A stretch of 42,783 nucleotides of DNA from a virus (taxonomy: Duplodnaviria > Heunggongvirae > Uroviricota > Caudoviricetes). Position 1 is the stretch's first letter, and every line of letters starts with the position of its first letter. The notes beneath the pieces were generated by a model. That model had not been told where the DNA came from and ran no database searches. It worked only from the letters and a program-made list of their open reading frames with translations. The position numbers and the translations under genes were made by a program. The DNA is taken from the IMG/VR virus record IMGVR_UViG_2630968543_000005. One strand, given 5' to 3'. Shown piece after piece: positions 33,326 to 37,706 of the stretch.

Positions 33326-33985
33326 ATGAAGATGAAATGGTATGAACTGGCTAGATCCAGAATGAAAGAACTCGGCATAACTCAAGAGAAGTTAGCTGAA
33401 GAGCTTGGTATGACGCAGGGTGGAATTGGTCACTGGTTGCGCGGATCTCGTCATCCATCTCTTGACGAGATTGGTGTGGTGTTTAAATACCTTGGTATTG
33501 ATAACGTCTCATTCAACCACGACGGTACATTTTCACCTGTTGGCGAATACTCATCTGCCCCCGTTAAAAAACAATATGAGTACCCTGTTTTTTCTCATGT
33601 TCAGGCCGGGATGTTCTCGCCTGAGCTTAGAACCTTTACCAAAGGTGATGCGGAGAGATGGGTCAGCACAACCAAAAAAGCCAGTGATTGTGCGTTTTGG
33701 CTTGAAGTTGAAGGTAATTCCATGACCGCACCAACAGGTTCCAAGCCAAGCTTTCCTGACGGGATGTTAATTCTCGTTGACCCTGAGCAGGCTGTTGAGC
33801 CAGGTGATTTCTGCATAGCCAGACTTGGTGGTGACGAGTTTACCTTCAAGAAACTGATCAGGGATAGCGGTCAGGTGTTCCTACAACCACTAAACCCGCA
33901 ATATCCAATGATCCCATGCAATGATAGCTGTTCCGTAGTAGGGAAAGTTATCGCCAGCCAGTGGCCTGAAGAGACATTTAGTTAA
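33326..33985 (+). CDS. cI: CI repressor (HTH N-terminal domain, S24 LexA-like C-terminal domain near-identical to lambda CI)
   Basis: ORF 33251-33985 trimmed to ATG 33326 (alternative 33332); C-terminal ..[93 protein letters not shown] matches lambda CI. Confidence 0.85.
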
Positions 33986-34015
33986 CAGCCTCACCACTCT
34001 AAAACACACAACAAT

Positions 34016-34045
34016 AACCCGACCTTAGCGTCGGGTTTTCTTTTT
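34016..34045 (+). terminator. Rho-independent terminator after cI
   Basis: AACCCGAC-CTTAGC-GTCGGGTT followed by TTCTTTTT. Confidence 0.55.
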
Positions 34046-34110: not shown

Positions 34111-34139
34111 TTGACTCAATAAAGTACACATCGTACTAT
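34111..34139 (+). promoter_or_regulatory. PL promoter with overlapping operator
   Basis: -35 TTGACT (34111-34116), 17-nt spacer, -10 TACTAT (34134-34139); operator AAAGTACACATCGTACTATT (34121-34140) shared with OR. Confidence 0.55.
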
Positions 34140-34185: not shown

Positions 34186-34219
34186 GCTCTTTAACTTCGA
34201 TGGGGCGCTGACAAAGCGC
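34186..34219 (+). promoter_or_regulatory. nutL (boxA + boxB)
   Basis: boxA-like GCTCTTTAA (34186-34194) and boxB hairpin GCGCTGACAAAGCGC (34205-34219), P22-type. Confidence 0.7.
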
Positions 34220-34338: not shown

Positions 34339-34647
34339 ATGACGGTAATCGTGTACGGGAAATCAACATTTGCAGGAAATGCCAAAACTCGCCGTCATGA
34401 GCGGCGCAGAAAGCTGGCTATCGAGCGTGATGCTATATGCAACATCATCGATTCGATCTTCGGCACAGACAGTGAGGAACCTGTTCAGGAAGCCCCGAGA
34501 AAACGTTTAATCCTTTCTGAAAAAGCAATATCACTCGGCAACATTCGTAACCAAAATACCGACGAATGCAGTGGAAGTATTTGCCTGCCAAACGTAGCCA
34601 TTTACGCGGCAGGCTACCGGAAATCAAAACAACTGACAGCCAGGTAA
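34339..34647 (+). CDS. N: Antiterminator N (P22 gene 24 type)
   Basis: ORF 34255-34647 trimmed to ATG 34339; arginine-rich motif GNAKTRRHERRRKLAIERD matches P22 N. Confidence 0.85.
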   Translation: MTVIVYGKSTFAGNAKTRRHERRRKLAIERDAICNIIDSIFGTDSEEPVQEAPRKRLILSEKAISLGNIRNQNTDECSGSICLPNVAIYAAGYRKSKQLTAR

Positions 34648-34650
34648 GTG

Positions 34651-34875
34651 ATGAATCAGACATACATTCCATCATGCTTGAGAAATCTGCCAAAGCAGAA
34701 AGCAAAGCCCCGCAAGCAAGCCATAAAGGACGCTAAGGCAGAGGTTATTGATCAAGCAATACAATTGCTCAGGGAGGAGTTAAGAAGTGGCAAGCTCGAA
34801 GGAATGATGATGCCTTATCAGCGCGGATATCTATCGGCGATTAGTAAGTTGGAAGTATTGAAGAGTGAATTATGA
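34651..34875 (+). CDS. Hypothetical basic protein directly downstream of N
   Basis: 74 aa, ATG 4 nt after N stop; Lys-rich N-terminus, predicted helical. Confidence 0.4.
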   Translation: MNQTYIPSCLRNLPKQKAKPRKQAIKDAKAEVIDQAIQLLREELRSGKLEGMMMPYQRGYLSAISKLEVLKSEL

Positions 34876-34937
34876 ACTATCTGGAATTTCCGGATGGTTC
34901 ATTGTTTTGGCAGCAAGCCACTTATTTGAGGTGAGAT

Positions 34938-35408
34938 ATGACAAAATCATGGAGCGTACCTTTTCCTGAATCAGAAACTGAACATGATGGAATGCCTGTT
35001 TTCTGGAGATTCCAGGCGACAGTTGAAGAAGATGGAATCAAAATATTCGCACTTCAATATATAGCTTTTCATCAGACAGAGCATTATGCATGGTTGGTTC
35101 CTGCGCATTGGATTGTTAATTTTAAACCAGCACCAAATCAGTGGTTACAGGAATGGAAACAAAAGAGAAATAGATATGCAATTAAGAAAGTAGCAAAAAA
35201 TGCAGAAAGATCTTTTGCATTCCCAACGAAGAAACTTGCCATTGAAAGTTTATTGCGCCGAAAGAAATACCATTTAATGAGAATCAAACAAGATTTGGCT
35301 GTTGTATCAACTCTTGTTGATGGGATGAAGAATATTGATACATCAACACCAGATATTGAATATAACTTTGGGCACAACCAAGAAACAGAAAATTGGGTAT
35401 TTTATTAG
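34938..35408 (+). CDS. Hypothetical 156-aa protein (accessory gene at sieB-equivalent position)
   Basis: GAGGTGAG RBS; no TM segment; no recognisable motif. Confidence 0.5.
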   Translation: MTKSWSVPFPESETEHDGMPVFWRFQATVEEDGIKIFALQYIAFHQTEHYAWLVPAHWIVNFKPAPNQWLQEWKQKRNRYAIKKVAKNAERSFAFPTKKLAIESLLRRKKYHLMRIKQDLAVVSTLVDGMKNIDTSTPDIEYNFGHNQETENWVFY

Positions 35409-35422
35409 TACGAGTAAGCACT

Positions 35423-35450
35423 GTGTATTCATTCCAACGAGTGAATACAC
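35423..35450 (+). other. Perfect 9-bp inverted repeat
   Basis: GTGTATTCA-N10-TGAATACAC with no U tract. Confidence 0.35.
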
Positions 35451-35512
35451 GGAGCAATGTCGCTCGTAACTAAACAGGAGCCGACTTGTTCTGATTATTG
35501 GAAATCTTCTTT

Positions 35513-35537
35513 GCCCTCCAGTGTGAGGGCTTTTTTA
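35513..35537 (+). terminator. Rho-independent terminator (tL1-like) ending the N-proximal cassette
   Basis: GCCCTC-CAGTGT-GAGGGC followed by 6 T. Confidence 0.55.
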
Positions 35538-35602
35538 TATGCATACCAATAACGCTTAACTAGAGGCGTTTTCGTTATGCAATCAAACAGAAGGAGCATC
35601 CT

Positions 35603-35773
35603 ATGCAACAGTTCGCTATTGCAGGGGCGGCATCGGTTCGCCCTTTCAACCCGATTTTATCGGTACAGCATTCACGAAAAAATATTTTAACCGGAGCAGA
35701 CTTTAAACAACCAAGAATGAAAAGTTTGCTCGAAAAGCTTTGGGATATTTTGAAACAACAAGGCCGCCCATGA
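35603..35773 (+). CDS. cIII: CIII-like protease inhibitor
   Basis: 56 aa MQQFAIAGAASVRPF...SLLEKLWDILKQQGRP; resembles lambda CIII (MQYAIAG...WKRLIDIL); AAGGAG RBS; below ORF track cutoff. Confidence 0.65.
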   Translation: MQQFAIAGAASVRPFNPILSVQHSRKNILTGADFKQPRMKSLLEKLWDILKQQGRP

Positions 35774-36027: not shown

Positions 36028-36735
36028 ATGGATTTAAATAAATTCGATGAGCCATTCAGCCCTGAAGATATTGAATGGCGAATACAGCAAAGCGGTAAAA
36101 CACGCGATGGCAAGGTGCGGGCTATGGTGCTGGCTTATGTCACGAACCGGGCAATCATGAAACGCCTGGACGATGTTTGCGGCAAAGCAGGATGGCGCAA
36201 TGAATACCGCGATATTCCCAACAACGGCGGCGTTGAATGCGGCATATCAATAAAGATTGATTCCGAATGGGTAACCAAATGGGATGCTGCTGAAAACACG
36301 CAGGTAGAAGCCGTCAAAGGTGGTCGTTCCGGTGCAATGAAGCGTGCTGCCGTTCAGTGGGGAATCGGTCGGTATCTGTATAACCTTGAGGGAGGTTTCG
36401 CACAAACATCTCTCGATAAAAAGCAGGGGTGGCACAGGGCAAAACTGAAGGATGGAACAGGATTTTACTGGCTCCCTCCATCGCTGCCGGGATGGGCAAT
36501 CCCAGCATCAGATAACAAACCATCACCAGAAAATACCAACCAGAAATCTCCATCGGTTGACTGCGAACAAATCCTGAAAGACTTCAGCGATTATGCAGCG
36601 ACAGAAACTGACAAGAAAAAACTCATCGAGCGTTATCAGCGTGACTGGCAATTAATGGCTGGCAACGAGGAGGCGCAGGCTAAATGCGTTCAGGTAATGA
36701 ACATCAGAGTTAACGAACTAAAACAGGCGGCATAA
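36028..36735 (+). CDS. Single-strand annealing recombinase with P22 Erf-type C-terminal domain
   Basis: 235 aa; C-terminal ..ILKDFSDYAATETDKKKLIERYQRDWQLMAGNEEAQAKCVQVMNIRVNELKQAA matches P22 Erf C-terminus as recalled; N-terminal two-thirds differs; GAGGTGA RBS. Confidence 0.65.
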   Translation: MDLNKFDEPFSPEDIEWRIQQSGKTRDGKVRAMVLAYVTNRAIMKRLDDVCGKAGWRNEYRDIPNNGGVECGISIKIDSEWVTKWDAAENTQVEAVKGGRSGAMKRAAVQWGIGRYLYNLEGGFAQTSLDKKQGWHRAKLKDGTGFYWLPPSLPGWAIPASDNKPSPENTNQKSPSVDCEQILKDFSDYAATETDKKKLIERYQRDWQLMAGNEEAQAKCVQVMNIRVNELKQAA

Positions 36736-37203
36736 ATGTCTCACTTGGACGGAATTATTAAAAGATTCGAGTCCAGCTACAAAGTTAATGAAACAACAGG
36801 ATGCTGGGAGTCTACCTATTCAAAAAACAAAGGAGGATACACAAAATTTGTAGCCTTTGGCGTAACAATGCTTTCTCATCGGGTTGCTTTTGAGCTTTAT
36901 CACTCCCCCATTCCATCTGGGAAGATGGTTTGCCACAAATGCGATAACCCATGCTGCGTTAATCCTGAACATCTCTTTTTAGGTAGCGCGCAAGAAAACA
37001 TGGACGACAAGATAGCAAAAGGAAGGCATCGTGGAGCCAAGAAAGGTCATGCTCATCATGGTGCAAAATTAACAGAGTGGCAGGTTATAGAAATTAGGAA
37101 AAGACTCTCTGAAAAAGAGAGTCAGTACAAGATAGCAAAAGACATGGGTGTATCTCAATCAATTATAAGCAACATAAAAACTGGCAAGAGGTGGAGCAAA
37201 TGA
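36736..37203 (+). CDS. HNH endonuclease
   Basis: 155 aa; [30 protein letters not shown] motif; inserted between recombinase and ssb. Confidence 0.7.
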
Positions 37204-37706
37204 GTTCTCGCGGGATAAATAAGGTGATTATCCTTGGTCGGGTAGGACAAGACCCGGAAGTTCGATACTCACCATCAGGAACAGCGTTCGCTAACCTGAC
37301 AATAGCAACGTCAGAACAATGGCGAGATAAAAATACTGGCGAGCAAAAGGAATTGACTGAATGGCATCGTGTTGCTGTATCCGGGAAACTGGCTGAGGTC
37401 GTGGGGCAGTATGTGAAAAAAGGTGATCAGATTTATTTCGAGGGAATGCTGAGAACCAGAAAGTGGAAAGACCAGTCAGGGCAAGACCGTTACACAACCG
37501 AGGTTCATGTCGGAATTAATGGCGTGATGCAAATGCTTGGCGGCATTGGCGACAGCAAACAACAAGCAGCCAGCAGGCAATCACAGAAGCCACAGCAGCA
37601 ATCATCACCAGCACAACACAACGAACCTCCGATGGATTTTGACGACGATATACCCTTTGCGCCAGTAACTCTCCCCTTCCCTCGTCACGCTATTCACGCA
37701 ATTTAA
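37200..37706 (+). CDS. ssb: Single-stranded DNA-binding protein
   Basis: [41 protein letters not shown].. OB-fold and acidic C-terminal tail [11 protein letters not shown] 37200 overlaps HNH stop. Confidence 0.85.

Follow-up and report, generated by a model that had tools for sequence, protein, structure and literature searches.

The region described here, positions 34651–35537, lies within a 42,783-nt stretch of DNA from a virus of the class Caudoviricetes (IMG/VR record IMGVR_UViG_2630968543_000005), the whole of which is referred to as the window. The window was found to contain the immunity and early-left region of a P22-like/lambdoid phage, in which the promoter PL reads on the plus strand, and the region in question falls in the interval between the antiterminator gene N and cIII. 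A first-pass annotation, made from the sequence alone, had read it as one immediate-early cassette of two uncharacterised genes closed by its own terminator. The two open reading frames (ORFs), the terminator and an inverted repeat were all located at the positions it gave, with a P22-type N upstream and cIII downstream, and its view of the N–cIII interval as a variable accessory slot agrees with the content of that slot in lambda (sieB, orf28, ral, ea10) and in P22 (sieB/esc, ral, orf78, orf87, 17). The cassette itself did not stand. The region is probably a mosaic of four separately inherited PL-operon modules, namely ORF-A, a hairpin (a candidate tL1 analogue), ORF-B and the small RNA (sRNA) PreS. 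Its anatomy is as follows.

34651–34875, plus strand: ORF-A, 74 aa, from the ATG at 34651 to the TGA at 34875, phrog_5305 (ORF list, PHROG match and homologues)
34872–34910, plus strand: 14-bp hairpin over the ORF-A stop codon with the U-rich tail UGUUUUGG (folding and terminator scan)
34909–34937, plus strand: mosaic linker, consisting of the relic GGCAGCAAGCCACTTATTTGA (34909–34929) and then the ORF-B Shine-Dalgarno sequence GAGGTGA
34938–35408, plus strand: ORF-B, 156 aa, phrog_1636 (HK97 gp45, 933W ST933Wp19, H-19B ORF)
35421–35452, plus strand: 5' hairpin of the PreS region, which is the inverted repeat of the first-pass annotation (folding; identical to lambda)
35449–35536, plus strand: homologue of the PreS/LPR1 sRNA, ending at the terminator tL2a (stem 35513–35530, T-run 35531–35536)

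ORF-A and ORF-B were found to be separate modules; either is present in loci where the other is missing, and the two also occur with ral in between or in the opposite order. N is followed directly by ORF-B, without ORF-A, in HK97, 933W and 611R6; in phi367 orf28 and ral (the latter a separate gene) lie between the homologues of the two; and in mEp213 a different gene follows ORF-A. Among 80 IMG/VR loci with an ORF-A of 96–100% identity, more than 15 different genes were found in the position next after it. A mosaic joint is visible in the linker upstream of ORF-B, where GGCAGCAAGCCACTTATTTGA is the relic of the final codons (GSKPLI and stop) of a lambda/611R6-type N, as seen by comparison with the N of 611R6, with HK97 and with lambda orf28. 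HK97 retains a longer relic, CVGRQKMKLGSKPLI and stop, right behind the stop codon of its P22-type N.

Two further observations concern gene order and joints. One metagenomic contig (L221, 375–1500; JGI 3300024582) carries an N with a lambda-type C-terminus, an ORF-B homologue, an ORF-A homologue and a PreS-like hairpin, so that its order is the reverse of the ORF-A/ORF-B order of the window. The GSKPLI-stop relic was located at 34909–34929 in the window, at 1943–1992 in locus L004 and at 2480–2523 in locus L002; many module joints carry this relic along with GAGGTGAnATATG, a combination that resembles a recombination linker.

At the 3' end of the region, the perfect 9-bp inverted repeat GTGTATTCA/TGAATACAC was confirmed as the core of a 14-bp stem (35421–35452; -22.3 kcal/mol, z -5.35), which none of 200 shuffled sequences equalled in folding. 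The terminator placed at 35513–35537 was also found, with a stem at 35513–35530 followed by six T residues (GCCCTC(N6)GAGGGC then T6; -11.1 kcal/mol) and a tail score of 5.38, on a scale with a maximum of 7.15 on which clear terminators score 5.2–5.5 and a non-terminator control 1.59. It is not, as had been proposed, the two genes' own terminator, but belongs to the PreS/tL2a module, as positions 35418–35530 are identical at 113 of 113 bases to lambda 34045–33933 (complementary strand, ral–ea10 intergenic region). Alignment of the PreS region indicated that lambda, HK97, 933W and phi367 share this module. In lambda, LPR1/PreS is an Hfq-dependent sRNA of ~88 and 68 nt encoded between ral and ea10, with its 3' end at tL2a; its expression falls in the lytic cycle, and the RNA activates translation of the host dnaN, represses alaS and supports lytic growth (bioRxiv 10.1101/2024.10.31.621285). 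By its sequence, 35449–35536 is the homologue of this RNA. The 5' ends would lie at approximately 35449 for the 88-nt form and 35469 for the 68-nt form, as extrapolated from the published band sizes, and the hairpin of the 9-bp repeat sits just 5' of the longer form. The PreS module was present in 66 of the 80 ORF-A loci with at least 20 different genes immediately upstream, and it is therefore independent of ORF-B. The last module of the mosaic would then be the PreS/LPR1 sRNA, with lambda tL2a as its terminator.

The first gene of the region was described as a 74-aa basic protein starting 4 nt after the N stop codon, and it was found as such, with an isoelectric point (pI) of 9.7 and with its Shine-Dalgarno sequence, AGGT, inside the last codons of N. 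The match to phrog_5305 is full-length (E 4.6e-38, residues 1–74 on profile positions 1–71 of 71), and searches gave 41–62 cluster matches from Escherichia, Enterobacter, Citrobacter, Leclercia, Pantoea and Erwinia. ORF-A and ORF-B each have dozens of full-length homologues of 55–100% identity with many invariant residues, which indicates that both are real genes and not chance ORFs. The AlphaFold2 model of ORF-A (predicted local distance difference test, pLDDT, 85) has helices at residues 21–45 and 54–73 arranged as a helical hairpin, preceded by an N-terminal tail rich in Lys, Arg and Pro. The maximum 19-residue Kyte-Doolittle hydropathy is 0.32 and there is no hydrophobic segment.

Position is the strongest feature of ORF-A. 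In nearly all of 78 loci the N gene upstream of it ends in ...YRKSKQLTAR or the close variant ...HRTSKQVTAR, while the N-terminal parts of these N genes are of several specificity types. Pantoea homologues of 55–58% identity retain the 4-nt junction between N and ORF-A as well as GAGGT in the last N codons. The start 4 nt past the N stop codon and the Shine-Dalgarno sequence within N suggest that ORF-A is made together with N, and hence early; the predicted picture is that of a small basic protein with the fold of a helical hairpin, translationally coupled to N and made as an immediate-early product.

The first-pass annotation had placed both genes before the first terminator. This is not supported, as a hairpin with a U-rich tail lies between ORF-A and ORF-B, and Pantoea and Citrobacter have a canonical terminator at this site; the first terminator thus probably precedes ORF-B. 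The hairpin ATGAACTATCTGGAATTTCCGGATGGTTCAT (34872–34902; -20.3 kcal/mol, z -5.2) was picked up by the terminator scan. It is always attached to ORF-A in the Escherichia coli loci and is kept in the Erwinia, Pantoea, Citrobacter and Leclercia homologues, with loops that vary (AAUUU, UAAUU, UGAUU). In Pantoea and Citrobacter a canonical GC stem and T-run stand directly after it, with tail scores of 5.5 and 5.2. Most likely the hairpin is a candidate tL1 analogue which ends or attenuates the unmodified PL transcript, in which case all that lies downstream of it would need N. PL, nutL, N, ORF-A and the hairpin would accordingly make up an immediate-early unit and ORF-B would be delayed-early. A micro-ORF that overlaps the ORF-A stop codon (ATGA; MNYLEFPDGS...) was also considered as a conserved unit and was rejected, because neither its length (9–25 aa) nor its sequence is kept (it starts with ATG, GTG or TTG) and its variants alter the peptide yet retain the stem.

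The main rival explanation for ORF-A is that it is a regulatory partner of N or of the PL transcript, binding the hairpin or modulating N, the Nus factors or RNA polymerase, and so tuning termination and antitermination or the stability of N mRNA. The linkage of ORF-A to N is very tight and old, the 4-nt junction being retained down to 55% identity, and most homologues are linked to the hairpin; the Lys/Arg/Pro-rich tail and the high pI would suit such a role, as would the place of the homologue in HK225, the first annotated ORF after PL. However, ORF-A is missing from P22, HK97 and 933W, in which N has the same C-terminus, and N therefore does not need it. Distant homologues also occur in non-lambdoid siphophages (Sasha-, swi2- and SeSz-2-type), in clusters of small genes beside terminase genes with no N annotated nearby, and the hairpin core is found in many contexts without ORF-A. 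On balance a regulatory role of this kind appears unlikely.

Two related phages show other arrangements around ORF-A. In HK225 (L007, 1176–1713) a homologue of 49% identity follows a PL-like promoter, with a leader of ~300 nt which holds a boxA-like TGCTTTTTAACAA, and no N is annotated. In mEp213 (L006, 240–1997) two N antiterminators are annotated in one operon, of the HK244 type and of the HK620/P22 type, and ORF-A follows only the second (the HK620/P22 type).

The second gene had been noted as a 156-aa protein with a strong ribosome-binding site, and it was found at that place with GAGGTGA upstream. ORF-B matches phrog_1636 over its full length (E 5.4e-112, residues 1–156 of 156) and is 98.7–100% identical to genes of HK97 (gp45, 98.7%), 933W, H-19B, BP-4795, Min27 and others. 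There were 33 cluster matches, and 40 residues are invariant across 21 full-length homologues. The gene is AT-rich, with a GC content of 35.7% compared with 47.5% for the window, and its product has a pI of 9.05, a maximum 19-residue Kyte-Doolittle hydropathy of 0.56 and no hydrophobic segment. In the AlphaFold2 model it has three long beta-strands (21–55), short helices and a long basic helix (98–131). A Foldseek search of BFVD recovered this fold from uncharacterised phage proteins only, and the phages are very diverse, with hosts such as Erwinia, Sinorhizobium, Delftia, Rhizobium, Tenacibaculum and Cellulophaga. When 1.84 billion representatives were searched with a profile, the family grew to 87 clusters, all unannotated and essentially all stand-alone proteins of 130–160 aa; two long matches (P0100 and P0121) look spurious, and a Pfam scan of eight of the matches found nothing relevant. 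Homologues of ORF-B head early operons in Salmonella phage NX263 and lie among early replication and recombination genes in a Vibrio phage. ORF-B may thus be described as a member of the HK97 gp45 family, with a predicted phage-only fold of beta-sheet and long basic helix, which would be the first gene of an early operon in other phages.

The first-pass annotation found no recognisable family for either protein, and this holds for Pfam, NCBIfam and PADLOC, in which scans of ORF-A and ORF-B gave nothing significant, and for the PDB, where sequence searches with the single proteins and with a 63-member profile gave no match, but not for PHROGs, where both proteins have families (phrog_5305 and phrog_1636). 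The 63 aligned members of the ORF-B family match only PHROGs of unknown function, and ORF-B had no significant profile or fold match to known DNA-binding folds (AP2, winged helix-turn-helix). Searches for SieB homology gave no Pfam, PHROG, NCBIfam or PADLOC match for ORF-A or ORF-B, and no match to Ral was found for either. No functional data were found in the literature searched on the accession numbers, on HK97 gp45 and in the accessory-gene screen of Silas et al.

Exclusion or abortive infection had been suggested as a function for this slot. In both lambda and P22 sieB is encoded on the strand opposite to PL and has its own promoter, whereas ral and gene 17 run in the same direction as PL. 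The co-directional genes of the slot in model phages are lytic-phase modifiers of the host or of its defences, such as ral and gene 17 and, further on, gam, kil and abc. On the plus strand from PL to 35776 no promoter-like site was detected in a promoter scan restricted to the sigma-70 consensus, and both genes depend on PL, since no promoter of their own was found. Neither is a membrane protein of the SieB type, their maximum hydropathies being those given above. As both genes are co-directional with PL, have no promoter of their own and encode soluble basic proteins, early roles in host takeover or counter-defence are favoured, in which, by analogy, both proteins would have a host or nucleic-acid target at an early stage of lytic growth. 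They are probably not exclusion proteins expressed from the prophage.

Several points weigh against this reading of the region and of its two genes. The tail score of the hairpin at 34872–34910 is 3.64, with 5 U in the first 8 bases, which is a modest U-tract, and HK225 and L221 have no hairpin after ORF-A. Rho-dependent events are not visible in sequence, which limits the division into immediate-early and delayed-early genes, and the promoter scan was of sigma-70 scope. The confidence of the ORF-B model is moderate (pLDDT 73, the other four models 54–59), no homology or fold match assigns a function to either protein, and the proposal of counter-defence or host takeover is drawn only from position, orientation and analogy.

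The original proposal may be set beside this, namely that ORF-A and ORF-B form one immediate-early cassette for exclusion, abortive infection or anti-restriction, with its own terminator and with no need of antitermination. In lambda and P22 the slot is indeed occupied by sieB, esc, ral and gene 17, both genes are upstream of the strong terminator at 35513–35537, and ORF-B, directly upstream of PreS, has the position of ral in lambda, so that a ral-like anti-restriction role is conceivable. However, the two genes are inherited separately, the terminator is part of the PreS module, a candidate terminator lies between them, neither protein has a PADLOC match, and both run with PL from no promoter of their own and are soluble, unlike SieB. 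The single cassette is thus considered very doubtful, and the mosaic of four modules is preferred.

The core of the hairpin after ORF-A (34875–34899) is a 25-nt palindrome, here called the RhuM-box, matching AACNNTCYGGAATTTCCGGATRGTT. This sequence was found in viral contigs (at least 120) and in bacterial contigs (at least 120) that span all major phyla. Most of the bacterial matches are DNA coding, on either strand, for the signature TIR[KN]FRIVQxEG of RhuM (PF13310), for which reason a mobile element or an adapter artefact as the cause of its spread was rejected. Further RhuM genes (loci L344–L420) were gathered via other peptide patterns, so that the sample is not biased toward the palindrome DNA. 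Among them the TIRKFRIV motif occurs in 18 distinct DNA versions, all 18 with 11–12 of 12 palindromic pairs, and the motif is the single best 25-nt palindrome in each RhuM locus. Pairing across the 18 versions is 95.8%, compared with 18–48% when the partner is slid. Six of the 12 pairs are changed on both sides, with 33 doubly changed cells compared with 11.8 +/- 2.6 in shuffles (0/500 as high), and no single-sided (G-U) states were seen among the 18 versions. Some of the changes involve amino acids swapped in pairs, T...V becoming V...T, and Arg (AGA) being paired with Leu (CTA). These compensatory changes suggest that a nucleic-acid palindrome appears to be under selection within RhuM genes.

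The RNA of the window is antisense to rhuM of the E. coli type strain ATCC 11775 (L421, at the tRNA-Sec locus) over 25 nt, with 24 Watson-Crick pairs and one G-U pair (-41.3 kcal/mol), and such a rhuM gene is present in at least 843 of 5426 complete E. coli genomes. The window itself has no RhuM ORF, only the 25-nt motif DNA, from which no frame continues as RhuM; the family enters here only as a possible source or target of the palindrome. As RhuM is a predicted toxin domain of defence loci linked to restriction-modification systems (PMC3710099), the hairpin could be, more than a terminator, an RNA or DNA countermeasure or mimic directed against host RhuM genes. The match of the core to RhuM coding DNA across bacterial phyla, the covariation, the strength of the antisense pairing and the frequency of rhuM in E. 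coli would all fit this. On the other side, both RNA partners are stable hairpins, which disfavours pairing between them, there could be unrelated reasons for re-using a stable A/U-closed hairpin, and the defence role of RhuM is itself only predicted. This countermeasure reading is quite unlikely, and the same grade is given to the specific proposal that the phage copy would be used as an antisense RNA or decoy site to neutralise or exploit RhuM. The phage copy may act as antisense RNA or as a decoy, may be a shared site for protein binding, or may be no more than a convenient hairpin, and the preferred reading of the element remains that of a candidate tL1 analogue.

The same 25-mer was also seen in unrelated phages, where phages and prophages of Proteus, Providencia and Morganella carry it as the core of elements that do not code for protein. 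In the Proteus and Providencia phages it stands after an annotated DNA adenine methylase gene and before another hairpin and terminator, with a tRNA gene next in some loci; no Rfam family was found around the palindrome in the Proteus-type loci. In a 503-nt contig from ENA (P0156) ORF-A runs on into the C-terminal part of a RhuM protein (TIWNFRIVQQEGSRQV...), with the fusion point exactly at the palindrome. This contig arose at the shared 25-mer either by recombination or as a chimera of assembly, and the second possibility counts against its use in favour of a link to RhuM.

The remaining features of the early-left region are listed below.

34111–34139, plus strand: PL-like promoter (TTGACT, 17-nt spacer, TACTAT; promoter scan)
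34186–34195, plus strand: nutL boxA, GCTCTTTAAC (read from the sequence)
34205–34219, plus strand: nutL boxB, GCGCTGACAAAGCGC, of the P22 type (read from the sequence)
34339–34647, plus strand: N antiterminator of the P22 gp24 type, stop codon TAA at 34645–47 (PF25694, 1.6e-39; phrog_271, 1e-39)
35551–35570, plus strand: second, weak hairpin and T-run between tL2a and cIII (-6.7 kcal/mol, z -1.2)
35603–35773, plus strand: cIII (phrog_550, 1e-22)

The gene for a cI-like repressor ends at 33985, and the PL-like promoter is placed between it and N, the position of the annotated PL of P22. The arginine-rich motif (ARM) of N, GNAKTRRHERRRKLAIERD, is of the P22 type, as is boxB (by comparison with P22 gp24), and the C-terminus of N, ...AAGYRKSKQLTAR, also matches P22 gp24. 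The weak hairpin at 35551–35570 is kept in HK97, phi367 and 611R6 but not in lambda or 933W, which have ea10/ssb there instead. No Rfam family was found in the window between 33900 and 36100. Two small proteins encoded 3' of cIII carry the PHROGs label 'recombinase' (phrog_2123 and phrog_1723). The 235-aa ORF at 36028–36735 is presumably a Rad52-type recombinase, as judged from its sequence only; a 155-aa ORF (36736–37203) with what we take to be HNH-endonuclease-like features lies between it and a putative gene for a protein resembling single-stranded DNA-binding protein (37191–37706). An HNH_3 gene was also seen in an Enterobacter prophage (L099/L100), where it directly precedes a short N-peptide ORF and overlaps it. 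Shortly past the 3' end of the repressor gene (34003–34045) the sequence AACACACAACAAT contains CACAACA, which is the GcvB R1 target consensus, and an intrinsic terminator follows directly (34016–34037, tail score 4.41); the element, which is without an Rfam match, has a likeness to the AgvB-type prophage anti-sRNA (PMC4104026).

As first described, the finding is largely ordinary, consisting of two hypothetical early genes in the well-known N–cIII slot, both already present in classic phages (HK97, 933W, H-19B, mEp213) and followed by the recently described PreS sRNA. PreS with its 5' hairpin is a self-contained module behind many genes and should be annotated so, rather than as the terminator of the preceding gene. 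ORF-A and its hairpin would form a conserved immediate-early unit with P22-type N, which would make ORF-A a well-defined candidate for a function before antitermination. Only the RhuM palindrome could be new; if its link to RhuM is functional, RhuM genes would contain an undescribed cis element, and a widespread predicted toxin of restriction-modification-linked defence loci would gain both this element and a phage counterpart.

Compared with known systems, the region is closest to lambda (ral–PreS–ea10) in its last part, with which it shares the 113 bases including the 5' hairpin, the seed region and the GC stem, the strand relative to PL, the place between N and cIII and the poly-U-tailed terminator, as in the published Hfq-dependent sRNA. 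The gene upstream is ORF-B (gp45 family) in the window and ral in lambda, a short spacer and cIII follow in place of ea10, and the U-tract is GGGCTTTTTTAT as opposed to GGGCGATTTTTT. Hfq binding and regulation of dnaN are known for the lambda RNA, whereas the window copy is known by its sequence. With HK97 gp45, 933W ST933Wp19 and the H-19B ORF, ORF-B has in common the near-identity of the protein, the PreS and terminator downstream, and the linker and Shine-Dalgarno sequence upstream; in those phages the gene lies directly after N (behind the relic of another N 3' end), whereas in the window ORF-A and its hairpin are inserted between N and the relic.

The PL operon of P22 (24 – sieB/esc – ral – orf78 – orf87 – 17 – terminator – c3) resembles that of the window in its type of N (ARM, boxB and C-terminus) and in having a variable block between N and a terminator that precedes c3/cIII. 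It differs in that no accessory gene of P22 is homologous to ORF-A or ORF-B and that a separate promoter serves sieB/esc, which lie on the opposite strand. The 25-nt hairpin core is identical to the DNA of the RhuM motif TIRKFRIVQxEG or to its reverse complement, and differs by 1 base from the reverse complement of rhuM in E. coli ATCC 11775. Unlike in RhuM genes, the element does not code for protein in the window, where its only overlap with a gene is at the ORF-A stop codon; since it is palindromic, the resemblance to RhuM may act at the level of DNA or of RNA.

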